From: Candidatus Ratteibacteria bacterium
Lineage (GTDB): Bacteria > Ratteibacteria > UBA8468 > MWAK01
DNA: 64,000 bases
Direction of reading: 5' to 3'
Assembly (NCBI GenBank): GCA_041653615.1
Contig: JBAZEZ010000003.1
Location: 1,213 to 65,212, forward strand
The translations under genes and the position numbers were made by a program. How positions within the stretch are numbered: the first letter of the stretch is position 1; every line of letters begins with the position of its first letter. The notes under the pieces were generated by a model that worked only from the letters and a program-made list of their open reading frames with translations, made no database searches and was not told where the DNA came from. Of the stretch, positions 46,401 to 61,824 are shown piece by piece.

Positions 46401-46925
46401 ATCGACGAGAAAGCTTTCGGTCCAGATAACCTTGCGGTAGATACAGACCTGAATAATCTTGCGGAAATTTATTATATTCAGGATCATTACGCTCAGGCCG
46501 AGCCGCTCCTCAGGCGTTCGCTGGCAATAAGAGAAAAGACTTTTGGCCCCAACCACCCTGGTGTGTCCACAAGTCTGAACAACCTTGCGGATTTGTACTA
46601 TTCCCAAGGCAATTATGGCCAAGCCGAACCGCTTTACAAACGTTCGCTGGCAATTGACGAAAAAACTCTCGGTTCGGATCATCCCGAAGTGGCAATAGAT
46701 TTGAACAATCTCGCGGGTTTGTATTATGCCCAAGGCCATTACGCTCAGGCCGAGCCGCTTTACAAGCGTTCTTTGGCAATTTGGGAAAAAGCTCTCGGTC
46801 CAAATCACCCCAATGTGGCTACGAGCCTTGATAATATGGCGGTGCTCTGTCGAAAAAGCGGTAGAGAAAAAGAAGCAAAGGCGCTGGAGACGCGAGCTGC
46901 AGCCATCAGGGCAATTAAGCGTTAA
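43452..46925 (+). CDS. secreted or lipid-anchored protein built from about 26 tandem 42-aa TPR units (kinesin-light-chain-like)
   Basis: 1157 aa; signal peptide; unit consensus [42 protein letters not shown] repeated throughout. Confidence 0.8.
   Translation: [1157 protein letters not shown]
44728..45206. repeat. 479-bp perfect internal direct repeat, copy 1, within the TPR gene
   Basis: identical to 45988-46466 (offset 1260 bp = 10 TPR units). Confidence 0.85.
45988..46466. repeat. 479-bp perfect internal direct repeat, copy 2
   Basis: identical to 44728-45206. Confidence 0.85.
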
Positions 46926-47034: not shown

Positions 47035-47838
47035 ATGGTTAAAGAAGACAGAAGCGGCAACGATGAGAAAGGGCTGATTTTTTACCATCGGGCCTACCGG
47101 ATATTTCCCTCCGGAGGTGTTCGCCGCCATACTATTGAAATTCTGCTCCTTTTCCTTCTTTTCGGCCTGATAGTATACCTCCTGTTTCCCTTGGCAACCA
47201 GGTTAACAAGTTATTTTTCCAAACAGGTTCTTTCCTACGTTATGCCTCCCAATACGCTTCAAATAATACAAAAGCCGTTTTTGTTCCGGCATGTTTACAT
47301 GATTGACCGCATCGGTAAATTTCCCGGAGCATTTTTTCTGTTAATTACCCTTATTATAACCCTGCTGATCATGATTGTCGTCCCGCGCCTGAAAAATATT
47401 CCTAAATCTTTTGGGACATGGATATCTTTAGCCGCCGCGATAAACATGATATCCTGTCTCTTTTTCCTCTTTTTTTCAAACCGGTTTCCTTACGATATCA
47501 GGATTTTTTCCGAACTTTACGTGGAAACGCAGGTTATTATCTGGTTTTTGATTGCTTTTATTGTGCCCATGGCCCTGGCGCCGTTTCCCGTAAATATTTT
47601 TTTGAAAATAGGCGTTACCGGTTTCATCCTGGCTTATTCTGTAATCTTTGGTTGCGCGCGCTATATTATTTTTCTCTACATACTGACCAAACACAGTTAT
47701 TTGTTTATGGCCCCGCTCTTTTTTATTTTCGGCCCGCTGGTGGATTCCGTTTACATTATAGGCATCTATTCTCTTTTCATAAGCCTCGTTGCCACTAAAA
47801 TGAAGGGAGTTATGACAAAATGGCGCTGGTCATATTGA
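47035..47838 (+). CDS. polytopic membrane protein, hypothetical; first gene of the exopolysaccharide-like operon
   Basis: 267 aa; 6-8 hydrophobic helices; overlaps the start of the downstream GT2 gene. Confidence 0.5.
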   Translation: MVKEDRSGNDEKGLIFYHRAYRIFPSGGVRRHTIEILLLFLLFGLIVYLLFPLATRLTSYFSKQVLSYVMPPNTLQIIQKPFLFRHVYMIDRIGKFPGAFFLLITLIITLLIMIVVPRLKNIPKSFGTWISLAAAINMISCLFFLFFSNRFPYDIRIFSELYVETQVIIWFLIAFIVPMALAPFPVNIFLKIGVTGFILAYSVIFGCARYIIFLYILTKHSYLFMAPLFFIFGPLVDSVYIIGIYSLFISLVATKMKGVMTKWRWSY

Positions 47839-49151
47839 TTCTTAAAATCTACGTCTGTTTTTCCGCGCTCATAATGATTGTTTATACAATCAGGCATTTT
47901 ATCTTTACCTTGAACAGGGTCGCCGGCGAACAGAGAATATACTATCAGGATATAATGGACAGTGAACTTCCGACGGTTTCCGTGCTGGTTCCCATGCATA
48001 ATGAAGAAAAAGTGGCCCGGGATATTTTGAACTCTTTGCTCGGTACCTCCTATCCCGGCGCGAAACTGGAGATATTGCCGATTATGCTGGCGGACAATCC
48101 GAACGAGACGCTGGAAACACTGGAAAATGTAGAAATCATACCGATTGACGACCATTCCACTGACGGAACAAAGAAGATATTGGCCGAGTATGCCGCCAAG
48201 TACCCGCAGGTAATGCCCGTATACCGGCAAGACCAGAAACGGGGCAAAGCTCGTGGATTAAACGATGCCATTGATATGGCCCGGGGCGATATTATCGTGG
48301 TTTTTGACGCCGACTACATCCCTGGAAAAGGCATCATCAAAGACCTCGCGGTTTGTTTTAAGGACCCGGAGGTGGGGGCGGTTATGGGCCGGGTTATTCC
48401 TTTGAATACCAAACATTCCCTGCTGACGCGGCTGCTTGACCTGGAAAGGTCCGGCGGCTACCAGGTTGACCAGCAGGCCAGGCATAACCTGAAACTTATG
48501 CCGCAGTATGGCGGAACGGTCGGTGCCTTCCGGCGCGATATCGTTATCGATATCGGCGGGTTCAACCCGAACAGTCTTACCGAAGACACGGAACTTACTT
48601 TCCGGCTTTTTACCCTGGGGTGGAAGGTCCTTTACGCCAACCGGGCCGAATGCTATGAAGAAGTTCCGGAAGACTGGAACGTGAGGGCGCGTCAGATAAA
48701 GAGATGGTCTCGCGGCCATAACCGGGTAATGTTCGGACAGATGTGGCCGTTGCTTAAATCAAAATATCTGACCGGCCGGGAAAAAATAGACGGAGCCTTG
48801 CTGCTGGGCGTGTACGCAACTTCTTTTATATTTGTCCTGGCCGCGTTTTGTTCCCTGGCGTTATTTTTTCTTGGAGAAATGGAGATATTCCCGGGTATTC
48901 TATTTTTAATTATGGTCATAACTTATAATGCCTTCGGTAACTTCGCTCCATTTTACCAGATTGCCACCGCCTCTTTTCTGGACGGAGGCGCTTACCGGAT
49001 ACGCTTGCTGCCGTTGTTTATATTTACCTTTTTCTTTAATTTATGGTATGTGTTTCTCGGATTCCTGTACGCGGTAGTCGACGTGGTAACCAGAAGAAAG
49101 ACCCGGTGGGATAAAACCAGTCGGTACCGAAAAACGGAGGTTACATCATGA
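47820..49151 (+). CDS. family-2 glycosyltransferase, processive synthase type (PgaC/IcaA/NodC/cellulose-synthase-like)
   Basis: 443 aa; N-terminal TM, DxD-type (VVFDADY), TEDTELTFR, Q(I)KRW processivity motif, C-terminal TM helices. Confidence 0.85.
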   Translation: MALVILILKIYVCFSALIMIVYTIRHFIFTLNRVAGEQRIYYQDIMDSELPTVSVLVPMHNEEKVARDILNSLLGTSYPGAKLEILPIMLADNPNETLETLENVEIIPIDDHSTDGTKKILAEYAAKYPQVMPVYRQDQKRGKARGLNDAIDMARGDIIVVFDADYIPGKGIIKDLAVCFKDPEVGAVMGRVIPLNTKHSLLTRLLDLERSGGYQVDQQARHNLKLMPQYGGTVGAFRRDIVIDIGGFNPNSLTEDTELTFRLFTLGWKVLYANRAECYEEVPEDWNVRARQIKRWSRGHNRVMFGQMWPLLKSKYLTGREKIDGALLLGVYATSFIFVLAAFCSLALFFLGEMEIFPGILFLIMVITYNAFGNFAPFYQIATASFLDGGAYRIRLLPLFIFTFFFNLWYVFLGFLYAVVDVVTRRKTRWDKTSRYRKTEVTS

Positions 49152-50200
49152 CACCGTTATTTATCTTTTTTAATTCAATTCCATACCCGATTTTGCTGGC
49201 TTTTCTGATTTTCCTGCTCTTGATATTGCTTCCTTTTGTCCCGGCTATCCGGGAACTTGTCAGGCCGAAGGATTCTCTCGCTTTGTTCATCAAGATGGAT
49301 TACACGAAAAACCCGAGGTATTTTGACCGGGCATTCAAGGATATCCTGGAAAAATCCCTGGAAAAAGTCGGATACGAACCCGGGCTGAAGAAGGTGCAGC
49401 TTTCCAAGAACGAACTGGTTGATATTTCGGATTCCAAGGTGGTCCCGGATAACGAAATCGTCGGTAACATTCTGTACGTCCGGAAAAAATTCACTTCCGG
49501 CAAAAGAGTATATCTGAATAAAGAAATTTTCGCCGGGGAATCGGCCATAATCGGAGAAAAAAATGTGCTGCGTGCTGTTGCCAGCGACGGAAACATAACC
49601 ATTTCCGCGGGAACAAGGGTTATCCGGTGGGTCGGGACCGAAGGGAGCGTGTTTGTCGGGTCGGATTGCGTCTTGGGAAAGCTCTGCTCCTGTAGCGGTT
49701 TGTTGGAGATAGGCAAGGCCTGCGTGTTTAACGCCTTGTACGGTAAACCTATTAATACCTATAAAATGCCGGACAAAGAGGTGGTTTCGGTTGCGCCGAA
49801 AATGAAAAATGTCGATGACGCGGCGTGGTACGTATCCGAAAATCATTTTTCGATACCTCCCGGCGCCGTGATTAATAACGATATTATCTCCAAGAGAAAC
49901 CTGACTTTAAAAAAGGACTGCACCGTTGCGGGCAGTTTGAAGTCCTACGGAAATATCGTGCTGGATGAAGGCGTAACCGTAAAAGGCAACCTGTTTGCGG
50001 AAGGAGATATTATCATCGGCGGGAAGAGTACCGTTACCGGAAATATATTTTCACAGAGCTATATCCGGATCGGCGGAAACGTGGGGGTCGGGGAAACGGG
50101 AACTATTAAGTCGGTCATCGGCAAAAAGGGGATTGAACTGACCGGCAATACGGTTATCTTCGGTTATGTTCTTACCGAAGGAACCGGTCGGGTGCTATGA
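49148..50200 (+). CDS. membrane-anchored bactofilin-like (CcmA/DUF583 beta-helix) protein
   Basis: 350 aa; N-terminal TM; repeated G(N/D)I..G...V.G motifs in the C-terminal half; ATGA overlap with GT2. Confidence 0.6.
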   Translation: MTPLFIFFNSIPYPILLAFLIFLLLILLPFVPAIRELVRPKDSLALFIKMDYTKNPRYFDRAFKDILEKSLEKVGYEPGLKKVQLSKNELVDISDSKVVPDNEIVGNILYVRKKFTSGKRVYLNKEIFAGESAIIGEKNVLRAVASDGNITISAGTRVIRWVGTEGSVFVGSDCVLGKLCSCSGLLEIGKACVFNALYGKPINTYKMPDKEVVSVAPKMKNVDDAAWYVSENHFSIPPGAVINNDIISKRNLTLKKDCTVAGSLKSYGNIVLDEGVTVKGNLFAEGDIIIGGKSTVTGNIFSQSYIRIGGNVGVGETGTIKSVIGKKGIELTGNTVIFGYVLTEGTGRVL

Positions 50201-52860
50201 TGAAAAAAAGGTTGTTGTCTATTATTTTAACGGGCACCATCGTTTTTGTGGTCGCGTTTGTCATCACGCAAAGATTTCTTACGCTTAATCGCGATATCTT
50301 GCCCAAAAACCAGGTTAACGCGTTACTCGTTTGCAACCCGGTTCTTTACGGGAACCAGCCGGGTATCACCGAAGCATACGACAAGGTGCTTGAAGAAGAA
50401 GGCGTGCCGCATAAAGTGGTAACACCCCACGCGCTTCTTAGCCTGGATTCCGCTCAAATTCTGGAAGCAAACCCGGTGATTATTATCCCGGACGGCGTAG
50501 CGCAGTCTTTGCCTTCGGACTTTGTCCAGTGGTGCAAAAACTACCTGGCCAGCGGCGGAAGCATGATGGTCGTTTATGATGGCGGAACCAGAAACAAAAA
50601 GGGAGCTTTCCTTAAGGAAGCGCTTTTTGCCGATTTTCTGGGAGTTAATTATCTGCCTTACGAACGTTTGCGGGGGCAGACCTATACGCGCGGCTATATT
50701 CAGTTTAAGAATTCGGCGAGCGCTGATTTTTTCCAGATGCCGACCGGCGTGCTTGACGCGGATAATTTTCTGCTCGGATATCAATACGGAAAACTGGAAT
50801 ATCCGATAGTCCGGGCGGAACCGCTCGGAGATGTCCCGGCCGAAGATATTTATGCTTACGCTCTCACGAAAGAACAAGAGAGATATCCGGCGCTGGTTTT
50901 AAAAAAGAAAGCTGCCGGAAGCGGCAGCCTGCTTTACGTTAACTTTCCCCTGGGTTATCTGAAAGCATACACGAACAACGACCTGTTGCTGAGAACCATC
51001 TTGAGAACATTTCTTTTTAAAGTGGTAAAAATCCCCCACTTGCTTAATACTCCTTCTGGAAAGGGCGGCCTGGTCATAAATTGGCACATTGATTCAAACA
51101 ATGAATGGCTTGGTATCCCTTTCATGGAGAAACATCGGTTTTTACGAAAAGATCTTGAGTATTCAATTCACGTAACCGCCGGAGATTTTTGTGACGAACC
51201 CGGAGACGGCAGGGGGTTTGACGCGTCCGGCCGGGGTCGGCCGTACCTTGAGACCCTGGCAAAATACGGGACAATCGGTTCCCACGGCGGATGGGCTCAT
51301 AACTGGTTTGCCAAAAACCTGCAGGAAAGGAAAATCAGTCCGGAGGGACAGGAGGAATATATCAGGCGGAATGACGAATCTCTCCAGAACGTCATCGGGT
51401 ATAAAATCATCGAATATTCCGCGCCGGTGGGAGTCCATCTCCAGCCCATAACTACCAACATCCTGGAAAAACTCGGATTTGTGGCGTATTACTACACCGG
51501 TGATTTGGGTTCCGCTCCCAACCGCACGTTCGTAAACGGGAAGATGGTTTCCGACAAAGTAATCGCTTTTCCGGTTATGCCTTACCGAAAGTTTGCTTCA
51601 ATTGACGAGATGGAAAGGGCGGGTATTACTCCGGAAGAAGTAAAGAAATGGTGGTGTGACACCCTGGATTATACGGTTAGGAACAGGACGGTCCGACTTA
51701 TCTATTCCCATCCGTACGATTTATATAATATACCGAAATATTCCCCTGCGCTTGATGCGTTTTTAAATTACGCGGAAAAGGAACAAAACAACGGAAAGGT
51801 GCGCGTTAAGCCGATGAGTTATTTTGCCAAGTTTATGCTGAAATTCCTGAAGACGCGATATGTTTTCAACCTGCAGGAAAGCGGACTGGCGGTAAACATT
51901 CAAAACAGTGACGGACTCAATGAAATTACCCTGGCTATCCCTAAAGACCGGTATCAAAAACCCGAAGGGTCGGAATTTATTCTGGATCAGGACAACGATT
52001 ATTACTACCTGACCTGTGCCGGAAACCTTCGGAAAAAAAATTTCCAAGTCAGCCAATTGCATCCGGTGCTCAGGATATGGCAGGAGTTTCAGAAGGTTGA
52101 AGAAAATAATTATATTATCCCGTATTTCGTTACTTTAAAAGCGATCGCTGACTTAAATGATGGCAAAATAGATATTGTCAAAAATTATATCATTTGGCAC
52201 TTAAACCACCTGAACTACCCGGACAAGAACGGTCTCAACGGAACCATCTATGATTATCGTATATCTCAGGACGGCAGGGAAGTGTCCACGAAGGACTATG
52301 ATTCGGTTGACTCATATGCCGGCATGTTTCTTTACCTGGTTAACCGGTATTATCAAAAGACGAACGACAAGCAGTTTATCGAGAAAAACCGGGCAAAACT
52401 TGAAGATATCGCTCGTGTGATTGTCTGGATGCAGGATGTTGACGGGTTAATCATGGTGATGCCCGGAAATAATACAAAATACCTGATGGATAACTGTGAG
52501 TCCTACGGAGGAATAAAGGCCTTCATGTCGTTATCGCGTGCGATGAATTGGGAAACAAAAGATTTTGAAAAAACGGAGAGCGCGCTCCGCAACGGCATCC
52601 GGAAATTTTTTGACAGCGGAAAGAATAATTTTTACTGGGCCATTCAGGAAGAAAAAAAACACGCGTCAACCTGGGATAATTATTATCCCGACGCTTACGC
52701 CCAACTTTTTCCCGTTCTTTTCGGACTCCTGGAAGAAGATACGGTATTAAGAACCTCGCTGTGGAAAAATTTCAATCAATTCCAGGCAAGTAAAATTGAT
52801 AAGATGGCCCCGGAGCAAAAGATAATCTTTGAATTTACAAAAGAAGTGATGAGTAAGTAG
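50197..52860 (+). CDS. large membrane-anchored periplasmic protein with a putative polysaccharide deacetylase/hydrolase-like central domain (PgaB/PelA analogue candidate)
   Basis: 887 aa; N-terminal TM; region INWHIDSNNE...GSHGGWAHNW reminiscent of NodB-type metal-binding motifs; ATGA overlap with the upstream gene; domain call is tentative. Confidence 0.45.
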   Translation: MMKKRLLSIILTGTIVFVVAFVITQRFLTLNRDILPKNQVNALLVCNPVLYGNQPGITEAYDKVLEEEGVPHKVVTPHALLSLDSAQILEANPVIIIPDGVAQSLPSDFVQWCKNYLASGGSMMVVYDGGTRNKKGAFLKEALFADFLGVNYLPYERLRGQTYTRGYIQFKNSASADFFQMPTGVLDADNFLLGYQYGKLEYPIVRAEPLGDVPAEDIYAYALTKEQERYPALVLKKKAAGSGSLLYVNFPLGYLKAYTNNDLLLRTILRTFLFKVVKIPHLLNTPSGKGGLVINWHIDSNNEWLGIPFMEKHRFLRKDLEYSIHVTAGDFCDEPGDGRGFDASGRGRPYLETLAKYGTIGSHGGWAHNWFAKNLQERKISPEGQEEYIRRNDESLQNVIGYKIIEYSAPVGVHLQPITTNILEKLGFVAYYYTGDLGSAPNRTFVNGKMVSDKVIAFPVMPYRKFASIDEMERAGITPEEVKKWWCDTLDYTVRNRTVRLIYSHPYDLYNIPKYSPALDAFLNYAEKEQNNGKVRVKPMSYFAKFMLKFLKTRYVFNLQESGLAVNIQNSDGLNEITLAIPKDRYQKPEGSEFILDQDNDYYYLTCAGNLRKKNFQVSQLHPVLRIWQEFQKVEENNYIIPYFVTLKAIADLNDGKIDIVKNYIIWHLNHLNYPDKNGLNGTIYDYRISQDGREVSTKDYDSVDSYAGMFLYLVNRYYQKTNDKQFIEKNRAKLEDIARVIVWMQDVDGLIMVMPGNNTKYLMDNCESYGGIKAFMSLSRAMNWETKDFEKTESALRNGIRKFFDSGKNNFYWAIQEEKKHASTWDNYYPDAYAQLFPVLFGLLEEDTVLRTSLWKNFNQFQASKIDKMAPEQKIIFEFTKEVMSK

Positions 52861-53012: not shown

Positions 53013-54170
53013 ATGCGCGCTATCAGAAGACTGAAAATCGGTGTGGTAACTGTTTTTTTTCTGTTCGTGGCGACTTTTCTTTTTGCCGAAGCGCCGTCCC
53101 AGGATTTCCATTTTCAAAACGGTGTAAAATTGTACTTGGAAGGGGATAGTGAAGCGGCCCTGGTTGCGCTGCGAAAATCGCTGGAAATAAATCCGGACAG
53201 CCGGGAAACCCGGGAACTAATCAATCTAATTTCCGGAAAGAAAAAGGCCGAACCGATTATAGTTGCGGAGCAAAACCCCGCGTCTCCGATACAGTTTTTA
53301 GAGCCTGAAGAGGCGGTGCAACAGGCAGTCCTGGATACAAAAGAACCCATAGAACCCGTGCTTACCAACAGGTCTTCAGAACCCGCGGTGCTTCCCGGCG
53401 GGTTTTTAGATTACGTGTCTTCCAAAAAAATAACGAAAATCAACATGGTACCATACCGGAATAGTCTTGAAGCAGATTTTTTAGTGGAATATCTTGACCC
53501 GAACGACATTTATGGTTCCTGGGAAAGTTTCGAACTCACCTTTTACCGGAATCAGTCTGACTCTTTAACGTATTTTCTGCAGGGCGGGGTATTCTGGCGG
53601 GATGAGGGAGACGGAATGAGTTTCGGCGCCGGGATTTCTAAAACCTGGAACAAGTATCTGTATACTTCTTCGTCCGTACATGCCGGAACCAACGTTGATT
53701 ACCTTCCCGAAATAAATCTTTCCCACGGTTTTTATTTTAAATTGGGGCAAAACAGAAACAACGTCGTCCCAATAGGTTTTACCTACATTGGTTTCCGCAA
53801 CGGTCACGAAGTGTATGTCGTTTCTTCCGGAATAACCGTTTACCGAACCGGATGGATTTTCGAGTACTTGTTATCCCGAAACCAGAATGAACCCGGCAGC
53901 GTCATTTCTTATTCCCACCTTGCCTCTGTTGCTCACGGACAGGATGGTTTGCAATGGTTGACCCTCACCCTCTCCGCCGGCCAGGATGCCTATCTGGCGA
54001 CGGATTTAACAACACCGGAGGAAGTGAATCAGGATTCTTACGGCGCCGCAATCCGTTTAAAACGGTGGTTGGGAAAGAGTTACGGAGTTATCGGAGAAAT
54101 CAGTTACTTTACTTTGGGTGATTCATACGATAAGTACGGTCTTACCGTCGGCATTTTTACTGAATTTTAA
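53013..54170 (+). CDS. putative outer-membrane beta-barrel protein with an N-terminal TPR-like module (PgaA-like export porin candidate)
   Basis: 385 aa; signal peptide; alternating amphipathic beta-strand pattern; C-terminal ...GIFTEF aromatic terminus; N-terminal HFQNGVKLYLEGD...INP...LISGKK module shared with the PilQ N-terminus. Confidence 0.5.
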   Translation: MRAIRRLKIGVVTVFFLFVATFLFAEAPSQDFHFQNGVKLYLEGDSEAALVALRKSLEINPDSRETRELINLISGKKKAEPIIVAEQNPASPIQFLEPEEAVQQAVLDTKEPIEPVLTNRSSEPAVLPGGFLDYVSSKKITKINMVPYRNSLEADFLVEYLDPNDIYGSWESFELTFYRNQSDSLTYFLQGGVFWRDEGDGMSFGAGISKTWNKYLYTSSSVHAGTNVDYLPEINLSHGFYFKLGQNRNNVVPIGFTYIGFRNGHEVYVVSSGITVYRTGWIFEYLLSRNQNEPGSVISYSHLASVAHGQDGLQWLTLTLSAGQDAYLATDLTTPEEVNQDSYGAAIRLKRWLGKSYGVIGEISYFTLGDSYDKYGLTVGIFTEF

Positions 54171-54183
54171 AGGGCTGGAATTT

Positions 54184-55632
54184 TTGAAAGTTTACGCGCT
54201 GAGCCTGGGATGCCCGAAGAATCTGGTTGACACGGAAAGGTTTCTGGCCGACCTGGTCGGTAAAAGATGGGAAGTGGTCGCGGAGCCGGATGAAGCGGAC
54301 GTTCTTTTCCTGAATACCTGCGCGTTTCTCTCCGAGGCGGTAGTTGAGTCAAAGAAGTTTTTGCGGGATTTGATTTTCGTCAAGAAACGTTTTCCGGAAA
54401 AAAAGATTTATCTGGCCGGCTGTATGGTCAGTCGCATTGGCAAATCGCTGCTATCTGAATTTCCGGAAATTGACCGGTTGATTACCCCTCAGGAGATCGT
54501 TCTTCTTCCTAACCGCTTTCTCTGCACCCCAAGTCACTATGCCTACCTTAAGATTTCCGATGGCTGCGACAATCATTGCCGCTATTGCCTGATTCCCGGA
54601 TTGCGCGGCCCCTTGAAGAGTTACCCGATGGAGCGGTTGATTGCCGAAGCGCGCACGCTGATAGCCGGAGGCGTGCGGGAAATAAATATTTGCGCCCAGG
54701 ATACCACCAGCTATGGGATTGACCTTTACGGAAAACCGGTCTTGGATAAATTGCTGCGGGAAGTTTGCAAAATTGAGGATTTGCGCTGGGTTCGGCTTTT
54801 GTATACCTATCCTACCGGTTATAACGAAGAACTAATAGAAACGCTCGCGGAACTTGCTTCCCCCTCACCCCGCCCTCTCCCCCGTGGGGAGAGGGGGAAT
54901 TCCTCTTTATTATTTCCTCTCCCCGAAAGGAAGAAGATGAATTCTCTTTCGTCCTTTCCTCTCTCCCCGGAGGAGAGGGGGAATACCCTTTTATTATCTC
55001 CTCTCCCCACGGGGGAGAGGATGAAGGTGAGGGGGAGTTTGCCGGGAGGGGTGAGGGGGAAATTGTGTCCCTACCTTGACATCCCGTTGCAGCACGCTTC
55101 CGACCAAATACTTTCGGCGATGAATCGCCACGGCAGCCAAAAAGAATACCGTAAATTAATTGCCAAATTGCGCCGTGCCATTCCGGATTTGATCCTGCGC
55201 ACAACTTTTATGGTCGGCTATCCGGGTGAAACGGAAAATGATTTTCAAATACTGCTGGATTTTGTTGAGGAGATGGAGTTTGAAAAATTAGGTCTTTTTG
55301 CCTATTCGGCGGAAACCGGTACGCCGGCGGCTGATTTACCGCAGGTTCCCCAGCCGCTGAAGGAAGAACGACTGGAAAGGTTAGGAAAAGTCCAGGCGAA
55401 GATTTCGCGGCGTAAATTGAAGAATTTTATTGGATGCGAGGTTGAAGCGGTGGTTGAGGACGTTAATCCGGATGATAAGAAAAAATCAATCGGCCGGACC
55501 CAGTTTGACGCGCCGGAAGTGGACGGTTCAATTATTCTGGACCGCCTGTTCCCGGTCGGGACCTTTGTTCGGGTAAAGGTTATTGGTGTGGATTCGTATG
55601 ACTTGCACGGAGAGGTAATACAAGAATTGTAG
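54184..55632 (+). CDS. rimO: ribosomal protein S12 methylthiotransferase RimO (MiaB-family radical SAM plus TRAM), carrying an in-frame 67-aa insertion
   Basis: MTTase N-domain (SLGCPKN), CDNHCRYC radical-SAM cluster, YLDIPLQHAS, C-terminal TRAM; probable TTG start at 54184 (the track ORF begins at 54118 and overlaps the upstream gene). Confidence 0.85.
   Translation: MKVYALSLGCPKNLVDTERFLADLVGKRWEVVAEPDEADVLFLNTCAFLSEAVVESKKFLRDLIFVKKRFPEKKIYLAGCMVSRIGKSLLSEFPEIDRLITPQEIVLLPNRFLCTPSHYAYLKISDGCDNHCRYCLIPGLRGPLKSYPMERLIAEARTLIAGGVREINICAQDTTSYGIDLYGKPVLDKLLREVCKIEDLRWVRLLYTYPTGYNEELIETLAELASPSPRPLPRGERGNSSLLFPLPERKKMNSLSSFPLSPEERGNTLLLSPLPTGERMKVRGSLPGGVRGKLCPYLDIPLQHASDQILSAMNRHGSQKEYRKLIAKLRRAIPDLILRTTFMVGYPGETENDFQILLDFVEEMEFEKLGLFAYSAETGTPAADLPQVPQPLKEERLERLGKVQAKISRRKLKNFIGCEVEAVVEDVNPDDKKKSIGRTQFDAPEVDGSIILDRLFPVGTFVRVKVIGVDSYDLHGEVIQEL
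54860..55060. mobile_element. 201-bp palindromic MITE-like element (TIRs CCCCCTCACCCC / GGGGTGAGGGGG; three internal CTCTCCCC-N4-GGGGAGAG hairpins) inserted in frame within rimO
   Basis: TIRs at 54860-54872 and 55048-55060; length 201 = 3 x 67 keeps the frame; encoded peptide is low-complexity PLPRGERG...PLPTGER. Confidence 0.7.
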
Positions 55633-55735
55633 TTGCCGAGCTTGCTCGGCGCGGTTGTTTTGTTGTAGGGGAGGGGCTCTGTCCCCTCCCGTGGTGGGCG
55701 GGGATGTAACCCCGCCCCTACATTAACACTTTCCT
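55633..55735. repeat. multi-hairpin intergenic repeat, copy B
   Basis: GTTGCCGAGCTTGCTCGGCGC + TGTAGGGGAGGGGCTCTGTCCCCTCCCG + GGCGGGGATGTAACCCCGCCCCTACATTAA between convergent rimO and pilQ; likely also a bidirectional terminator. Confidence 0.7.
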
Positions 55736-57351
55736 TACTTAACCTGCGCGGTCTTTTCGCGAAGTAAAGCCGCGGCGTCCGCGGATTCGTTAACAACGTG
55801 CGGCGTAATAAAAATTAAGAGTTCCGTTTTCTTGGGTTCTTTAACCGTTCGTTTGAAAAGATAGCCGAAAATCGGAATATCTCCGAAAAAGGGAACCTTG
55901 TAAGCAGTGTCCTTCGTTTGGTTGGTTAGCAGCCCTCCGATTACTACCGTCTGCCCTGATCTAACCGTAACGTTGGTATCGGATTCCCGGTTGTTGATTC
56001 TGGGAAGAACCAGGGTTCCGTCCCCGGTACCGGAAGCCACAGAATCGCCCAGGGATGTTACTTCCGGGTGGAGAATCATTTCCACCGCGCCTGCCTGGTT
56101 AACGTGAGGTATAACCCGAAGACTGATTCCGATGGGTTCGTAATGGTCGAGTGAACCGGTGATCAAGGTTTTTCCCGTGGTATCGGTAGTCGTGGTAGTG
56201 GTCATGATGGGGTATCTTTCGCCGACCATAATTGCGGCCGGATAGTTGTCCAGGGCCATGATTCGCGGGTTGGAAAGGATGTTGGCTTTTCCGGATTTTT
56301 CCAGGGCTTGGATCGTTACGTTTAAAGGGATGTGATTGTTATCGTAAGTAAGAGAAAGTCCGCCCCCGGCGGACATTGCCGGGACAGGAAAAGCCGGGCT
56401 GGTCAGGGTTGTGAGGCCGGAGGTAAGGCCGTTGGTTGTGGTGGGACCCCAGTTAATCCCGATGTCCCTTATATAGTCCGAGCTGATTTCTACAATCATG
56501 GCTTCGATCAGAATTTGGGATGGTTTTACGTCCAATTGGTTGATGAGAGTTTCAATTTTGGCTAAAACCTTCGGGGAATCGACAACTACCAGTACTTTAG
56601 GTTTTTCTTCGTTAGCGGTCGCTTCGCGCGTTTTTTTCCCGATGGTGGTTCCGGTGGTGGAAACACCGCTCATTGACCAGCCGCCGACCGATAAGTCGGT
56701 CATTACGTCAACCGTTCCGCCGGGTGAAAGTTGTTTTTGGATAATCTCCTTAATTTTTTCCGCGCTTACGTAATTAAGGGTAAACACCCTCGTAATCAGC
56801 GTGTCGGTGGTTAAGGGATTGTTCCGCGAGGAAAGGTTGGTTAAGGTGGAAACCAGCATCAGGCTGCCGGATTTTTCGTAGCCGAATCCGTTTACCGCCA
56901 GGATTGCGCGGAGGGCTTCTTCCACCGGTATGTTGGAAAAGGAAATAGTTACGGTTCCGGCCACTTCCTTGCCCGCGACAATATTAAATCCGTATTCTTG
57001 GGCAAAGAGCCGTAGGACATCGTTAAGGTCGGCGTTTTTTAACTCCAGGCTCAGTAATTTTGCCCCTTCCGTTTTTATTGCCGGAGCCATGACTTCCGTT
57101 GGCGCCTGGCTGATTTCCTGTTTTCCGGAAATCAGGGCAAGCAATGCCTGTGCCTGTTCGTGGCTGGGGTTAATTTGGAGCGATTGGTTCAATTCCGATA
57201 CGGCCGCTTTGTTTTCCCCATTCAAATAATACTTTAAACCTTTCTGGAAGTGTTGTTCTGCCGGAGGCGCTCCTTCACCCAGGAGCAATACCGGAACAAA
57301 TAAGAGTAAGACCAGCAGAATCCAAAATCTTTTGGTTATCGCGGGACACAT
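55735..57351 (-). CDS. pilQ: type IV pilus secretin PilQ (secretin family outer-membrane channel)
   Basis: 538 aa; signal peptide; N0/N1-like repeats; C-terminal secretin domain (VVIGGLLTNQTKDTAYKVPFFGDIPIFGYLFKRT...LLIFITPHVV); last gene of the pilMNOP cluster. Confidence 0.8.
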   Translation of the reverse strand: MCPAITKRFWILLVLLLFVPVLLLGEGAPPAEQHFQKGLKYYLNGENKAAVSELNQSLQINPSHEQAQALLALISGKQEISQAPTEVMAPAIKTEGAKLLSLELKNADLNDVLRLFAQEYGFNIVAGKEVAGTVTISFSNIPVEEALRAILAVNGFGYEKSGSLMLVSTLTNLSSRNNPLTTDTLITRVFTLNYVSAEKIKEIIQKQLSPGGTVDVMTDLSVGGWSMSGVSTTGTTIGKKTREATANEEKPKVLVVVDSPKVLAKIETLINQLDVKPSQILIEAMIVEISSDYIRDIGINWGPTTTNGLTSGLTTLTSPAFPVPAMSAGGGLSLTYDNNHIPLNVTIQALEKSGKANILSNPRIMALDNYPAAIMVGERYPIMTTTTTTDTTGKTLITGSLDHYEPIGISLRVIPHVNQAGAVEMILHPEVTSLGDSVASGTGDGTLVLPRINNRESDTNVTVRSGQTVVIGGLLTNQTKDTAYKVPFFGDIPIFGYLFKRTVKEPKKTELLIFITPHVVNESADAAALLREKTAQVK

Positions 57352-57364
57352 ATTTTCCCCTCCT

Positions 57365-58618
57365 TTATTGTAATATTCTGATTACCTGTTCCAACCGTTC
57401 TTTTAAGCGAACGGCATCTTTATCGGTCGGATCCAGTTTCAGGATTCCATCAGTTGTTTCCATTGCTTTTTCGTACTGGCCGGCGTTAATGTAGGCGCTT
57501 GCCTGATTTTTGAGTTCACTGATTCGTTTTTCTTGGTCAAAGACTGGTTTAGGCGCGGGTGGCGGAATCACCACTTTCGGTTTCGGAGTTTTCACCGCTG
57601 CCGGTTCTTCCGAAACTTCTTTGGCTTTTATTTTTACCTCAGAATTTTCCTGCGCGGCAATGGTAATCGGTTCGGCTTTGGTGTAGATAAAGTTAATGGT
57701 GGCGGCGCCATTTTGAAAACTGAAGGCCGGAATAAATTCCGGCTTAATCAATCCGGTTCCGGATGTTTTTATGAATACCCCTTTTCCTTCTTTATCGTAA
57801 TAAACACAGACATTATCATAGGCGTCTTTAGCCGTAATTTCCGTCTGGAAAGCCCGCCCGGCAGTAATTTCGGAAGGATAGGCGATGCTAAAATGATGAA
57901 TAAATCCGGGTTTTATTCCCATGGTTCCCGTTCCGGAGATTTTACCTGCCTCATTTTTGAAAACAAGGGTTGCTTTGCCGGTTTTGGTGCATGTCAATTT
58001 GATTGCCGCTATTCCCTCGGTAAAATTAGTCTGGTTAAGATAATTCGGGCTGACCGTACTTTCTCCGTTGTTTGTAATTCTGATGCTGCCCTGTTCGGTA
58101 CCAAACGAGGTTACGCAATTTCCGTTGGCGTCCCTGGCGATTATTTCCCCGGTAAAAGGTTCGCCGGCTCTTGACTGGGCCGGAAGCATGATTTCAAAAT
58201 AAGCGGCTTTGCCGGGAAACGCCTGAAGAATTGCCGATCCAAGGGCCGCGGAGCCTTTTTCCTTTACGATAATTTTAAAGATTTCAGCCCGGGAGTAGGA
58301 GCAGGTAACGACCGTTTTTCCTTCTTTAAAATCATCCGATTTAATAATTCCCGGTTTGAATTCTCCGGTGCCGATAGCCTTGATTTCAATTTCTTTTTCC
58401 TTTTGGTCATATCCGGCTATCATGTTGTCGTAGAAATCTCTGACCTCCAGTTCAATGGTAAAAGGTTCGCCGGCTTTGATTCCGGAGGGCGCGTTAATGA
58501 TAAAATGGTCGGTTTCGCCCGGTGATACTGTAATGGCAGCCGAAACCCGGTCGGCGGTTCCCGTAAAGATAAATAACGACAGAATTATTAGGAATGATTT
58601 TTTCATTATTTTTTTCAT
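57365..58618 (-). CDS. secreted protein with three about-110-aa Ig-like repeats, a Pro-rich linker and a short TPR-like tail; embedded between pilP and pilQ
   Basis: 417 aa; signal peptide; repeated ...AGEPFT...DAYDN... blocks; PKPKVVIPPPAPKP linker. Confidence 0.5.
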   Translation of the reverse strand: MKKIMKKSFLIILSLFIFTGTADRVSAAITVSPGETDHFIINAPSGIKAGEPFTIELEVRDFYDNMIAGYDQKEKEIEIKAIGTGEFKPGIIKSDDFKEGKTVVTCSYSRAEIFKIIVKEKGSAALGSAILQAFPGKAAYFEIMLPAQSRAGEPFTGEIIARDANGNCVTSFGTEQGSIRITNNGESTVSPNYLNQTNFTEGIAAIKLTCTKTGKATLVFKNEAGKISGTGTMGIKPGFIHHFSIAYPSEITAGRAFQTEITAKDAYDNVCVYYDKEGKGVFIKTSGTGLIKPEFIPAFSFQNGAATINFIYTKAEPITIAAQENSEVKIKAKEVSEEPAAVKTPKPKVVIPPPAPKPVFDQEKRISELKNQASAYINAGQYEKAMETTDGILKLDPTDKDAVRLKERLEQVIRILQ

Positions 58619-58643: not shown

Positions 58644-59102
58644 TTAGTTTCCAAACCGAAGAATTTCTTCATCCGTTCCTCTTTTCAGTATGACCCGATT
58701 TTTTTCAATAGCCACAATTTTTTTGTCGTTCACGATATCTCCGACCCGAAGGATTTTTTCATTGATAATCGCTGTTGCTTTTCCGCCGTTCCCCAAAAGT
58801 ATGCCGGTAAGGGAGGAGGGCGCTAATTCACCTTTAAGTATTAATTGAAATGGGCCTGTTCCGGCAGAAGTGAATGCCGGACGCATCGGGTCTTTTTGGG
58901 TTGTGTGGTAATATATCGGCATCCCCGCCTGTTTGGATTTTTCCAGCAGGTCTGCTGTTTCTTTCCAAAAGTTTTCTTCGCCAATTACTTCGGTTTCATT
59001 CTTTACCGGGTTTGGTTTTTTCCCGGTCAGATGGAGGCTGAAGAATAGGAATCCCAGGGAAAAGAGCATTAGAACCGCGAGAACTATCGGTTTTTTATTC
59101 AT
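58644..59102 (-). CDS. pilP: type IV pilus assembly protein PilP-like
   Basis: 152 aa; signal/lipoprotein-like N-terminus; C-terminal beta domain ...AIINEKILRVGDIVNDKKIVAIEKNRVIL typical of PilP. Confidence 0.6.
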   Translation of the reverse strand: MNKKPIVLAVLMLFSLGFLFFSLHLTGKKPNPVKNETEVIGEENFWKETADLLEKSKQAGMPIYYHTTQKDPMRPAFTSAGTGPFQLILKGELAPSSLTGILLGNGGKATAIINEKILRVGDIVNDKKIVAIEKNRVILKRGTDEEILRFGN

Positions 59103-59605
59103 TTGGTATAGGTGACGACTTCAATTTCTCCCCGGTGCAGGTTTTCCGTATTCTCCAGGGTTAACCGGTCTATTCGGAAAAGGGCCTGGTCTGATTCCAG
59201 GAGATGGATAAAATTTACAATCTGCCGGTAATTTCCCGTGAAAACAATTTTAAAGGAGATTTCGCCGGTCGTTTTGGCGATATCGGTTCGAGGGGTAGGG
59301 GCAACCGATGAAACCCGGACGCTTGCTTTTTTAGCCAAACCCAACAGGCGGGTTAGAATGGATTTTTCCGGGATAAACAGCCGGTTTTTAAGAATAGCCC
59401 CGGTCTCTTTTAGGCTATTTCGGGAAGCGGCAATTTCTTCTTCCTGCTGCGTCACAGATGATTTTAAGGTGTCGGAATTTAATTTTACTTTAAGTTCTTT
59501 TATCTTGCGGTTCTGGGGAAAAATAAGAACCATAAAAAGAGAAACCATTAATGCCAGATAAGTTACGCCGGCTATCAGAAACCACCTTAAAGGAATTCTC
59601 TTCAT
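59099..59605 (-). CDS. pilO: type IV pilus assembly protein PilO-like
   Basis: 168 aa; single N-terminal TM, coiled coil, ferredoxin-like C-terminus; position between pilN and pilP. Confidence 0.6.
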   Translation of the reverse strand: MKRIPLRWFLIAGVTYLALMVSLFMVLIFPQNRKIKELKVKLNSDTLKSSVTQQEEEIAASRNSLKETGAILKNRLFIPEKSILTRLLGLAKKASVRVSSVAPTPRTDIAKTTGEISFKIVFTGNYRQIVNFIHLLESDQALFRIDRLTLENTENLHRGEIEVVTYTK

Positions 59606-60150
59606 TTTTTTGTTCCAACGATTCTGAAATTAAAGGTTCCCGCTTCTTCTCCTATCTGCTCGAATTTCAGGTCATTCAATCCCCGGGTAAAATTTTCATT
59701 TCCGTTTAACTTTTCCAAAAAGACCGACAGAGAAGTCATCGTTTGGTTTCCAGACAGTTCCTGCCCCTCCAGGGAGACAATGTCCCCTTCGAAATTTATC
59801 TTGTTAAAATAAAAATGGTTTGGTGTGGCGTCAGAGAGTACGACCAATTTTGGCGTCAGGAGCAGGCGTTGTTCTTGGAATAGCACGATTTTTTTCAATT
59901 CTTCCTGCCGGGATTTTTCCTCATCGGTGGGGGAGAATGTCTCGCGTTGTTCTTTGGTCAGGGTCAACCCCTGTTTTTCTACTCGCGCGGTATAATCGGT
60001 AATAATGGTCTTATTGGTTGCGCGAATGATACTTAAAATTGCCAAGGAAAAGAACAGTATGGGCAGAAAAATGCCGATAAAGAAAAAAAGACGTTCTTTT
60101 CTTTCAATCGGTTCGGTGTATCTTTCTTTGATTAAATTAATTTCAACCAT
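59602..60150 (-). CDS. pilN: type IV pilus assembly protein PilN
   Basis: 182 aa; MVEINLIKER start (PilN INLLP-type), single TM. Confidence 0.65.
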   Translation of the reverse strand: MVEINLIKERYTEPIERKERLFFFIGIFLPILFFSLAILSIIRATNKTIITDYTARVEKQGLTLTKEQRETFSPTDEEKSRQEELKKIVLFQEQRLLLTPKLVVLSDATPNHFYFNKINFEGDIVSLEGQELSGNQTMTSLSVFLEKLNGNENFTRGLNDLKFEQIGEEAGTFNFRIVGTKK

Positions 60151-60164
60151 AATTTCTTTTAATT

Positions 60165-60295
60165 GTAGTCGCCCGGCTTGCCGGGCTCCGTTTTTTTCTT
60201 GTAGGGGAGGGGCTTTGTCCCCTCCCGCAGTAGGACAGGCGTCCCGCCTGTCAAATCGCGGGCGGGGATGTAACCCCGCCCCTACATTAAAATTT
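60165..60295. repeat. multi-hairpin intergenic repeat, copy C, in the pilM-pilN spacer
   Basis: GCCCGGCTTGCCGGGC + TGTAGGGGAGGGGCTTTGTCCCCTCCCG + GGCGGGGATGTAACCCCGCCCCTACATTAA; about 90% identical to copy B over the latter modules. Confidence 0.7.
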
Positions 60296-61824
60296 TAAGA
60301 ATTTACACCGTTCCTCGGAGAAAGTCCGGCCAGAATGGCAAGGAAAGGAGCCAGGTTTTTTCCCCGTTCCGTTTGCAGTCCGTCGTCTTTTAAAACTGGA
60401 TATGGTTCCAGTTCCAGTAGTATTCTTTCGCCGATAAATTTCGGCAAGGAAGGAATCTGTCCGCCGCCGCCGGTTACCACCAATTTTTTAACCTTTATTT
60501 CCAAAACCTGCTGGCAATAGCTGATTGTTTTTTCCAATTCATCCAACAGGGTTTTTGTGGTTTTGTCAATGGCGTCCGGGAAGGCAATCAGGGAATGTTT
60601 TTTTTCTTCCAACATCTCCAGGACGGTTGGGGCGTCGAAGTTGTTGGCAGACACTATTTCCGCGATTATCCTTTCGTTGCCCCAGAGTATATCCCGGACA
60701 AAAAGAAGTTTGTTTTTTTCAACTACGGCCAGGTTGCTTCTCCGGTGTCCGATGTTAAGAAGCAGCGTTGCTTCGGAACCGTTTCCGGTGTTGGCCAGGT
60801 ATCCGTTTGCCAGCGCAATGCTGTCAATGGTTAATCCGGTCGGATTGAGCCCTGTTGATTTAAGTAAAGAAATTCTTTCGTCGCTTAAAATTTGCGGGGC
60901 GGCGACAAAAAGAATTCCCCTCTTTTCATTTTTTTGGTCGATAAGAGAGAAATCGGAATCCATCAGGGAAAGGTCTTCTCCGAGAATCTGCGATGCTTCA
61001 ATCTTAATCGCCCCGGTCAATTCTTTGCCGGTCAGGGCAGGGAGGGAGAGGTATTGCACGTTTATTTCCGAGTTGGAAATAGAAGAGAAAACCGGTTTTC
61101 TCTCCAGGTGGTGCTTGGATACCCAACCGGAAAGCAGGGTGGCTGTTTCGTTGTTTTCAACCGGCCGCCGGGCAAATTCAATCGCTTTCAGTTTTCCATC
61201 GCCATTGATAACCGCGAGTTTTACGTATCGGCTGCCGATATCTACGGCTACCGTAGTCTGTCCGCCGAATTTTTTCTGGGACGGGGTGGTCATTTTCAAG
61301 GATTTATTTTGCTTTATCTCCTCTTTTTTTACTATTGCCTGCTGCCGCAGTTCTTCCCGTTCCCGAAGCAGGGTTTCTTTTTTAGCCAGGGCTGCCTGAC
61401 GCGCCGCCTCTTTCTGTTTTTGTAATTCTTCTTTTGTTTTGATTGCAGCTGCTTTGCGTTCTTCGGTTTCTTTTAACCTGCCCGCCGCAATTTCTTCCTT
61501 GTTCCGCCTTTCTTCGGTGGATTGTTTTTGCTTAAATTCCAGTTCCCGCTGTTTTGCCGCTTCTTTTTCCCGGAATTGCGCTTCGGTTTTTACTATTGCC
61601 TGCTGCCGCAGTTCTTCCCGTTCTCGAAGCAGGGTTTCTTTTTTAGCCAGGGCTGCCTGACGCGCCGCCTCTTTCTGTTTCCGCAGTTCTTCCTTTGCTC
61701 TAACTCTAACATCCATTGCTTCCGCCGCGGCTTTATTTTTTTTGAGCCGGAGTATCTCCAGAAATTTTATTTTGTTTTCTTTTTGGTCAGAGTTCATCAT
61801 CTTTTCCAGCTCGGTTTGGTCCAA
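60295..61824 (-). CDS. pilM: type IV pilus assembly ATPase-fold protein PilM with an about-200-aa Lys/Glu-rich coiled-coil N-terminal extension
   Basis: 509 aa; C-terminal actin/FtsA-like fold (VAVDIGSRYVKLAVI...); N-terminus contains two copies of KEELRKQKEAARQAALAKKETLLREREELRQQAIVK, encoded by an about-100-bp DNA tandem repeat at 61324-61425 and 61587-61688. Confidence 0.7.
   Translation of the reverse strand: MDQTELEKMMNSDQKENKIKFLEILRLKKNKAAAEAMDVRVRAKEELRKQKEAARQAALAKKETLLREREELRQQAIVKTEAQFREKEAAKQRELEFKQKQSTEERRNKEEIAAGRLKETEERKAAAIKTKEELQKQKEAARQAALAKKETLLREREELRQQAIVKKEEIKQNKSLKMTTPSQKKFGGQTTVAVDIGSRYVKLAVINGDGKLKAIEFARRPVENNETATLLSGWVSKHHLERKPVFSSISNSEINVQYLSLPALTGKELTGAIKIEASQILGEDLSLMDSDFSLIDQKNEKRGILFVAAPQILSDERISLLKSTGLNPTGLTIDSIALANGYLANTGNGSEATLLLNIGHRRSNLAVVEKNKLLFVRDILWGNERIIAEIVSANNFDAPTVLEMLEEKKHSLIAFPDAIDKTTKTLLDELEKTISYCQQVLEIKVKKLVVTGGGGQIPSLPKFIGERILLELEPYPVLKDDGLQTERGKNLAPFLAILAGLSPRNGVNS

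Follow-up and report, generated by a model that had tools for sequence, protein, structure and literature searches.

A lone tetratricopeptide repeat unit on the PilQ secretin and on a YaiO-family outer-membrane barrel in a Ratteibacteria genome

Two channel genes and their common N-terminal module

We analyzed a 64,000-nucleotide stretch of a Candidatus Ratteibacteria genome (contig JBAZEZ010000003.1 of assembly GCA_041653615.1; hereafter the window), in which a YaiO-family outer-membrane β-barrel protein (the porin) and the type IV pilus secretin PilQ carry the same short module directly after their signal peptides. Both open reading frames were as the initial annotation had described them (53013-54170, plus strand, 385 amino acids [aa]; 55735-57351, minus strand, 538 aa), and the peptides quoted from them had been read correctly. 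The two proteins are identical to database entries named as proteins of Ratteibacteria metagenome-assembled genomes. The G+C content is ~48% throughout the window, and the locus shows no compositional break. The features of the two genes are as follows.

53013..54170 (+): gene of the YaiO-family outer-membrane β-barrel protein (385 aa), called an exopolysaccharide (EPS) porin in the initial annotation; open reading frame, Pfam, NCBIfam, AlphaFold
53013..53087 (+): porin signal peptide, aa 1-25, with the putative cleavage site ...FLFA/EAP; read from the sequence, modelled as a helix at 2-24, conserved with the orthologue P0122
53088..53246 (+): module of the porin (aa 26-78), predicted to be one tetratricopeptide repeat (TPR) and a capping helix; BLASTP, leave-one-out profile, AlphaFold helices
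53097-53228 (+): 44 aa absent from the closest porin orthologue (porin aa 29-72); alignment with P0122
53241..53447 (+): Pro/Glu-rich linker of the porin (aa 77-145), predicted to be disordered; predicted local distance difference test (pLDDT) ~30, no secondary structure
53457..54167 (+): predicted 14-stranded β-barrel domain of the porin (aa 149-385); AlphaFold, Foldseek
55735..57351 (-): pilQ gene, coding for a type IV pilus secretin (538 aa) that has no AMIN domain; Pfam, NCBIfam
57115..57273 (-): module of PilQ (aa 27-79), adjoining the signal peptide (aa 1-25/26); BLASTP, orthologues, AlphaFold

The cleavage site of the porin signal peptide was inferred without a prediction tool.

The initial annotation had claimed that both channels begin, after the signal peptide, with a nearly collinear TPR-like module of about 55 aa. 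The common segment was confirmed by BLASTP of the full proteins, which returned one significant segment, porin 27-78 against PilQ 28-79, ungapped, with 24 of the 52 positions identical (46%) and 37 positive (71%; E 3e-12). Beyond this N-terminal 52-aa segment, BLASTP of the full proteins gave no significant similarity between the two. The Smith-Waterman score of the two modules was 127, whereas 20,000 shuffles had a mean of 21.9 (standard deviation 4.4, maximum 51; z = 24), and the other TPR proteins of the window scored at most 46. When a profile was built from the five known PilQ modules, with the porin left out, the porin module scored 55.6 bits over its full length. The same profile reached a maximum of 42.4 bits, and a 99th percentile of 27 bits, on 2000 single TPR units drawn from those 149 multi-TPR proteins that matched best in a library of 1.84 billion proteins. 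In a six-frame translation of the window, only the porin and PilQ modules matched the module profile (E ~1e-36), the next best match having an E of 0.05. Among 135 secretin and YaiO homologues, six carriers scored at least 95 bits and the other 129 at most 9.3 bits. The similarity between the porin and PilQ is real and specific, and it exceeds the generic resemblance among TPR helices that the initial annotation had named as the result that would speak against its claim.

The DNA that encodes the two modules is only roughly 55-60% identical (an estimate; the mean column identity of the alignment is 75% over 251 columns), which argues for an old divergence; recent gene conversion was ruled out on this ground. 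An assembly chimera or artefact was also ruled out, as the same porin protein and the same gene order occur in independent assemblies (NCBI, JGI, ENA, Logan).

Structure prediction agreed with the TPR-like nature that had been proposed for the segment. The isolated 53-aa module, folded by AlphaFold with the alignment of the six sequences, formed three helices (5-17, 21-34, and 39-50) with a pLDDT of 93. In Foldseek the model superposed on a designed consensus TPR, Fis1, MamA, and PilF with template modelling (TM) scores of 0.82-0.92 (0.85-0.9 for the consensus TPR) and root-mean-square deviations (rmsd) of 0.5-1.4 Å. The corresponding helices of the full-length porin model are 31-42, 46-59, and 64-75, and the module has a pLDDT of ~70-80 there. 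We took as a TPR a 34-residue helix-turn-helix with a pattern of small and hydrophobic residues at positions 4, 7, 8, 11, 20, 24, 27, and 32. The module profile aligns column by column with the TPR consensus, and the equivalents of G8, Y11/12, A20, L24, A/S27, and P32 are invariant; the residues invariant in all six copies are mainly those of the TPR core and three positions of the capping helix. The Pfam gathering scores for TPR families were not reached by either copy (porin, TPR_1 18.0 bits vs. 27.8; PilQ, TPR_11 15.9 bits vs. 26.8). Scores below threshold are usual for a single repeat. A tandem array of three or more repeats was not found in the AlphaFold models, where both the porin and PilQ have one repeat and a cap followed by the linker. 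The models indicate that the module is one canonical TPR (helices A and B) with a capping helix, and that it forms a discrete sequence family of ~45 aa. Of the ~55-aa module first proposed, the shared segment holds, and the structured unit is the shorter, three-helix one.

Operons of the two carriers and distribution of the module

Each channel gene is the last of an operon. The remaining genes of the two operons, which run on opposite strands, are listed below.

47035-47838 (+): 267-aa membrane protein, porin operon
47820-49151 (+): PgaC-like synthase of glycosyltransferase family 2 (GT2), porin operon; Pfam, NCBIfam
49148-50200 (+): 350-aa β-helix protein, porin operon
50197-52860 (+): 887-aa protein with a weak polysaccharide-deacetylase match, porin operon; Pfam
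52054..52857 (+): additional domain of 268 aa at the C-terminus of the 887-aa protein; BLASTP against an orthologue
57365..58618 (-): 417-aa secreted protein with immunoglobulin (Ig)-like repeats, between the pilP-like gene and pilQ; open reading frame, Pfam, sister genomes
57368..57532 (-): C-terminal single TPR-like unit and helix of the 417-aa protein (~aa 363-417), a candidate docking partner; Pfam
58644..61824 (-): pilus operon genes pilP-like (58644-59102), pilO-like (59099-59605), pilN-like (59602-60150), and pilM (60295-61824); order and homology

The window secretin has Pfam matches to PF00263 (Secretin, 2.7e-50), PF03958 (2.3e-10), PF07660 (2.3e-08), and PF21305 (3.4e-05), with Secretin_N, STN, and N0 domains. 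Its best secretin model in NCBIfam is TIGR02515 (PilQ), at 258.4 bits just under the cut-off of 284.35. No match to AMIN (PF11741) was found in the window PilQ, and the TPR unit sits in the AMIN position. The pilQ gene closes an operon of the pilM-N-O-P-Q type, with a PilM_2 match here and PilO, PilN, and CdsD_C matches in orthologous loci of the same order; the names pilP-, pilO-, and pilN-like are inferred from gene order and homology. The PilM of the window also has a Lys/Glu-rich N-terminal extension of ~180 aa (~61285-61824 of the minus-strand gene 60295-61824), in which KEELxKQKEAARQAALAKKETLLREREELRQQAIVK occurs twice as an exact internal duplication; PilM of the sister loci has only 325 aa.

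The barrel gene closes a plus-strand operon whose upstream genes span 47035..52860 and have overlapping start and stop codons. The porin matches PF19413 (YaiO) at 57.9 bits (cut-off 23.9; E 1.7e-15) and TIGR04390 at 117.5 bits (cut-off 32). AlphaFold predicts a signal helix, three short helices, the disordered region 77-145 (pLDDT ~30), and 14 strands with a pLDDT above 90; the predicted barrel is closed and antiparallel, and the protein ends in an aromatic residue (...FTEF). In Foldseek, structure matches to outer-membrane barrels had E values of 1e-7 to 1e-10. Barrels of the 14-strand OmpG type had the best target coverage among the matches listed (target-normalized TM score [TMt] 0.62-0.71), and the PgaA barrel (4y25) had a TMt of 0.48 and 9% identity to the porin. 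With this, the initial statement that the module lies on two unrelated outer-membrane proteins holds, one being a bona fide secretin with pilM/N/O/P-type genes upstream and the other a YaiO-family barrel. The GT2 protein of the operon matches Pfam GT2 families (E 1e-21 to 3e-29) and TIGR03937 (PgaC_IcaA) at 132 bits, under the cut-off of 422, and the 887-aa protein matches Polysacc_deac_1 with an E of 0.0012 (19.2 bits, under the cut-off of 23.1). From this operon context alone, a PgaC-like GT2 and a deacetylase-like protein, EPS porin is a reasonable label. In the literature covered, YaiO turned up only as a polymerase chain reaction marker of E. coli. Directly upstream of the polysaccharide operon, at 43452-46925 (+), lies a gene for a 1157-aa secreted protein that consists almost entirely of TPR-like repeats of ~42 aa (…LAIREKALGPDHPDVA…LNNLAGLYYAQGQYAQAEPLYKRS…).

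Another gene of the locus, rimO-like (54118-55632, +), has an in-frame insertion at 54874-55025 with three hairpin-forming repeats spaced 42 nucleotides apart. Each contains a perfect inverted repeat of 21 nucleotides, CCTCTCCCC-N-GGGGAGAGG, and they translate to a PSPxPLPRGERG-type peptide inside the radical-SAM methylthiotransferase. The sister genome L006 has one shorter repeat unit at the same position.

The module was found on five PilQ proteins, those of the window, of P0002-P0004 (71-76% identical proteins), and of P0009 (52%), always right after the signal peptide. It is missing from the PilQ orthologues P0005-P0008 (58-69% identical) and from P0010-P0015. A neighbour-joining tree of 428 core columns, which carries no bootstrap values, places the module-less P0005-P0008 between the crown group of module-bearing proteins and P0009, and this topology implies, as the simplest history, one early gain followed by losses. 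The PilQ copies are 51-91% identical among themselves, and the window copy is 51-59% identical to those of P0002-P0004 and P0009. The module of PilQ evolves at about the rate of the PilQ core (51-59% vs. 52-76% identity), which is consistent with constraint. On PilQ the unit appears to be old but dispensable.

The closest porin orthologue found, P0122, is 67% identical to the window porin, has the same signal peptide, and is preceded by the same β-helix and deacetylase-like genes. After ...FLFAE(T/A)P, exactly 44 aa of the window porin are missing from P0122, which also has a linker that is ~36 aa shorter. The P0122 locus (L003) lies in another neighbourhood, with a WecB-like gene next in place of rimO and pilQ. 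The 887-aa orthologue at this locus is 68% identical over aa 26-619 only and lacks the 268-aa C-terminal domain (BLASTP). No Pfam match was obtained for that domain, and a sequence search of the Protein Data Bank with the 887-aa protein gave no relative. Another 13, more distant, YaiO homologues all lack the module. At the insertion point of the porin, junctions or flanking repeats were not definable, the DNA alignment being too diverged there; the 3' junction shows a short match, TTTCCG-AAA, which has no significance by itself.

Relatives of both proteins carry other domains in the same place. Many PilQ matches have AMIN in the N-terminal slot, and the Ratteibacteria PilQ P0011 (L021 2896-4626) has an SH3b-like segment there (24.9 bits, under the Pfam cut-off of 27). 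The YaiO homologue P0123 has a SPOR domain and a long coiled coil. In both channel families the N-terminal slot appears, from these comparisons, to be a hot spot for accessory domains.

To find other carriers, we searched protein and genome collections. When the alignment of the six module sequences was compared with proteins by a word-indexed method, nothing scorable was returned, the query being too short for the method. An exhaustive profile search of 1.84 billion representatives gave 14,235 matches at E ≤0.001. The best 150 of these 14,235 by summed score were mostly multi-repeat TPR proteins, and the only ones with a single stretch were PilQ orthologues (a fragment, P0167, and P0009); single-unit carriers at 45-80 bits would fall below these 150. 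Pattern scans of GTDB genomes and JGI metagenomes, which rest on one strict peptide pattern, found PilQ loci and one type of secreted coiled-coil protein. The only carriers found were five PilQ orthologues of one Ratteibacteria subclade and the window porin, which agrees with the lineage specificity first suggested. The initial annotation had also named the absence of the module from other envelope proteins as a result that would speak against its claim; no third type of carrier appeared in the window or in the database scans, so that the answer leans negative, for a genome of which 64 kb were seen.

The secreted coiled-coil protein (L008, L009, L012, and L014, from other metagenomes; e.g., L012 2285-3700) has ~430 aa and an N-terminal unit with 36-37% identity. 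It starts with a signal peptide and a TPR and cap (HFQNGVKYY...) and continues with a coiled coil, long and charged, and another TPR-like unit. Its gene adjoins another TPR protein gene and has a fragment of an Lnt-like gene farther upstream, an unrelated context.

Origin and possible role of the module

The gene between the pilP-like gene and pilQ offers a lead to a partner of the module. Three sister genomes encode a LysM protein of 154-175 aa in the slot before a module-bearing pilQ (L006 2399-2887, L015 6398-6925, and L016 5345-5809), whereas the window encodes the 417-aa protein with Ig-like repeats, a domain swap relative to the LysM of the sisters. All four proteins end in a homologous helical, TPR-like tail of ~55 aa, which in the window protein matches Fis1_TPR_C (25.4 bits), TPR_19, and TPR_2 in Pfam. 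This C-terminal unit was considered as a third copy of the module and rejected, as it gave no score with the module profiles and Smith-Waterman scores of 26-31. The extra gene is present in four of the five module-bearing loci and in none of the four module-less ones. The association amounts effectively to one clade and is only suggestive.

With moderate confidence, we propose that a module native to PilQ was shuffled onto the YaiO barrel and that it acts as a tethered periplasmic docking handle. Exported to the periplasm, the module would be the first folded element of the mature protein, tied to the membrane-embedded part by a flexible linker of ~20 aa in PilQ and ~70 aa in the porin. It would be native to PilQ of one Ratteibacteria subclade, in the slot that AMIN takes in classical PilQ. 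In the window genome or a near ancestor, a homologous copy would have joined the YaiO-type barrel 4 kb away, right after the signal-peptide cleavage site, an event of domain shuffling. A lone TPR unit could be a handle for protein-protein docking, its packing being completed in trans, and the module would thereby hook its channel to a periplasmic or cell-wall-associated adaptor. On the PilQ side, the likeliest partner would be the product of the gene just before pilQ, through its conserved, TPR-like C-terminal tail. The porin copy may reuse this partner; alternatively, it may have been exapted and bind the enlarged, polysaccharide-modifying protein that the porin operon encodes. Precedents are exopolysaccharide porins whose TPR domains bind their partner enzymes in the periplasm, as in PgaA-PgaB, and the LysM protein TsaP, which stabilizes PilQ (PMC9384988 and PMC10653833, respectively).

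A more far-reaching version takes the lone TPR as a "split TPR" handle. The PilQ unit would stack on the tail of the upstream protein, which in the sister genomes would give wall anchoring through LysM, independently of AMIN, and a polysaccharide barrel with the same handle would couple exopolysaccharide export to the type IV pilus through a shared adaptor. We give this version a rather small chance.

Several observations weigh against the proposal of a shuffled docking handle. P0009 carries the module, yet the extra gene is missing from its locus, and the link between the two is phylogenetically that of one clade. The upstream protein of the window has Ig-like repeats and not LysM, so that cell-wall anchoring does not follow here. 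With each of the PilQ copies the porin module shares 42-48% identity, a greater divergence than between even the most distant two PilQ copies, and the acidic residues E27 and E39, invariant in the PilQ modules, are A and R in the porin copy. The higher divergence and these replacements argue against a strictly shared partner and leave the donor uncertain; the porin copy could come from the resident PilQ with later accelerated divergence, from a more distant carrier, or from an unseen third protein. A gain on the porin and a loss in P0122 are told apart by parsimony only. Repeated loss on PilQ and absence from the porin orthologue show that the unit is dispensable.

The replacements at the surface positions E27 and E39 also fit a history in which the two copies share ancestry and not function. 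The porin TPR would then be a minimal scaffold similar to those of PgaA, PelB, BcsC, and AlgK, and would dock either the polymer or the polysaccharide-modifying protein encoded in the porin operon, independently of the pilus machine. Synthase-dependent exopolysaccharide operons each encode an outer-membrane-associated TPR protein, and the TPR region of PgaA binds PgaB and poly-β-1,6-N-acetyl-D-glucosamine (PNAG; PMC9384988). The porin operon has the PgaC-like GT2 and the deacetylase-like 887-aa protein, and in one orthologous locus a module-less porin goes with an 887-aa orthologue that lacks the 268-aa C-terminal domain. However, this co-occurrence of module and domain is a single comparison, the domain has no recognizable family or solved relative, and one TPR falls far short of the three-repeat PNAG-binding groove of PgaA. 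We consider such independent partners possible, if on the improbable side. That the porin module is a neutral remnant, a short, autonomously folding TPR unit duplicated onto a neighbouring gene and tolerated there on the tip of its long, disordered linker, seems to us quite unlikely. It occurs on one porin sequence only, the linker of that porin is ~36 aa longer as well, the unit is dispensable on PilQ, and the neighbourhood contains other lineage-specific insertions (the rimO repeats and the N-terminal duplication of PilM). Yet the porin module, only 45% identical to any PilQ copy, has kept its capping helix and every core position of the TPR, and AlphaFold predicts its fold with fair confidence in the full-length protein (pLDDT ~70-80; 93 for the module in isolation). 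This suggests that the porin module has long been maintained.

Two further roles had been suggested in the initial annotation, pilotin replacement and peptidoglycan anchoring, and neither gained specific support. A cis-acting pilotin or assembly aid would resemble the first TPR (TPR1) of PilF, PilW, and Tgl and would hold the channel's own unfolded membrane-insertion segment, or contact the targeting machinery, until insertion into the outer membrane. Type IV pilus secretins have pilotins that are TPR proteins; the modelled TPR1 surface binds a hydrophobic helix of the unfolded β-lip, and loss-of-function variants of PilF map to TPR1 (PMC10653833). The PilQ module aligns with positions 31-76 of the PilW model TIGR02521 (E 9e-5) and with residues 38-80 of PilF (E 0.0015; Foldseek rank 49, 31% identity), and the pilus operon shows no gene for a pilotin-like lipoprotein, although one may lie elsewhere in a genome of which 64 kb were seen. 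Against this, the scores are ~21-22 bits (TIGR02521, 22 vs. a cut-off of 154; PilF, 21.4), no better than those of PEX5, MamA, and SPINDLY, and pilotins are lipoproteins with six TPRs, neither of which applies here. PilQ proteins that lack the module, encoded in the same pilM-N-O-P-Q operon, branch within the module-bearing group, and the YaiO barrel has no β-lip and has orthologues without the unit. We place little weight on this role. A direct peptidoglycan-anchoring domain in place of AMIN appears very unlikely: the module does occupy the slot of the AMIN, SH3b-like, and SPOR domains of relatives, but it has a plain TPR fold without likeness to any known cell-wall-binding fold, and the separate LysM protein beside pilQ in the sister genomes would be redundant. 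To our knowledge, direct peptidoglycan binding is not an activity of TPRs. At most, indirect anchoring is suggested, through that LysM protein.

As it stands, the locus is a clean case of small-scale domain shuffling of a common interaction motif, of interest mainly to annotators of secretins and exopolysaccharide exporters. Should the module prove to be a docking handle, it would reveal how the little-known, uncultured Ratteibacteria, which have no PilQ with AMIN, tie outer-membrane channels to partners in the periplasm or cell wall, and that such a handle can move between unrelated channels by an insertion of ~44 codons right after the signal peptide. As a natural minimal TPR of one repeat and a cap, it may also be usable for the study of TPR packing in trans.

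Comparison with known export components

The exporters PgaA, BcsC, PelB, and AlgK/AlgE resemble the window porin in having a periplasmic TPR part N-terminal to an outer-membrane barrel, and in operons that encode a GT2 synthase and, in the window by a match below cut-off, a putative deacetylase; in the exporters, the TPR part is a scaffold for protein and polymer (PMC9384988). The porin differs from them in its one TPR and cap, in place of a multi-repeat superhelix, and in that its closest orthologue has no TPR at all. Its barrel is of the YaiO family, with 14 predicted strands, and not of the 16-18-strand type of PgaA, BcsC, and AlgE.

On the PilQ side, the pilotins PilF, PilW, and Tgl (and TadD for Tad secretins) also bring a TPR element together with a PilQ-type secretin in the periplasm, and the model of the module can be laid over PilF, whose first TPR also aligns with the module in sequence. 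However, pilotins are separate lipoproteins with six TPRs, whereas here a single unit is fused in cis without a lipobox (neither PilQ nor the porin has a cysteine at the predicted cleavage site), and the likeness is at the level of generic TPRs. The AMIN domain of classical PilQ takes the same position, N-terminal to N0, but it has a different fold, and the module itself is not expected to bind peptidoglycan. The small LysM protein encoded immediately upstream of the module-bearing pilQ in the sister genomes is reminiscent of TsaP, which stabilizes the secretin. These proteins of 154-175 aa are likened to TsaP by LysM domain and context, and in the window the LysM part is swapped for Ig-like repeats.

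Other fusions of TPRs and secretins exist, with N-terminal TPRs in P0111 and C-terminal TPR-like units in P0049, P0036, and P0051. Unlike the module, these are multi-repeat or C-terminal, and they are not specifically related to it (at most 9.3 bits vs. at least 95 for the carriers). The best structural matches are the designed consensus TPRs (CTPR) and Fis1 (TM 0.82-0.91, rmsd 0.6-1.4 Å), which have the same core consensus residues in tandem arrays or two-repeat domains, whereas the module is a lone repeat with a capping helix. The finding thus adds a variant, of modest interest, to the known TPR-bearing components of outer-membrane export.

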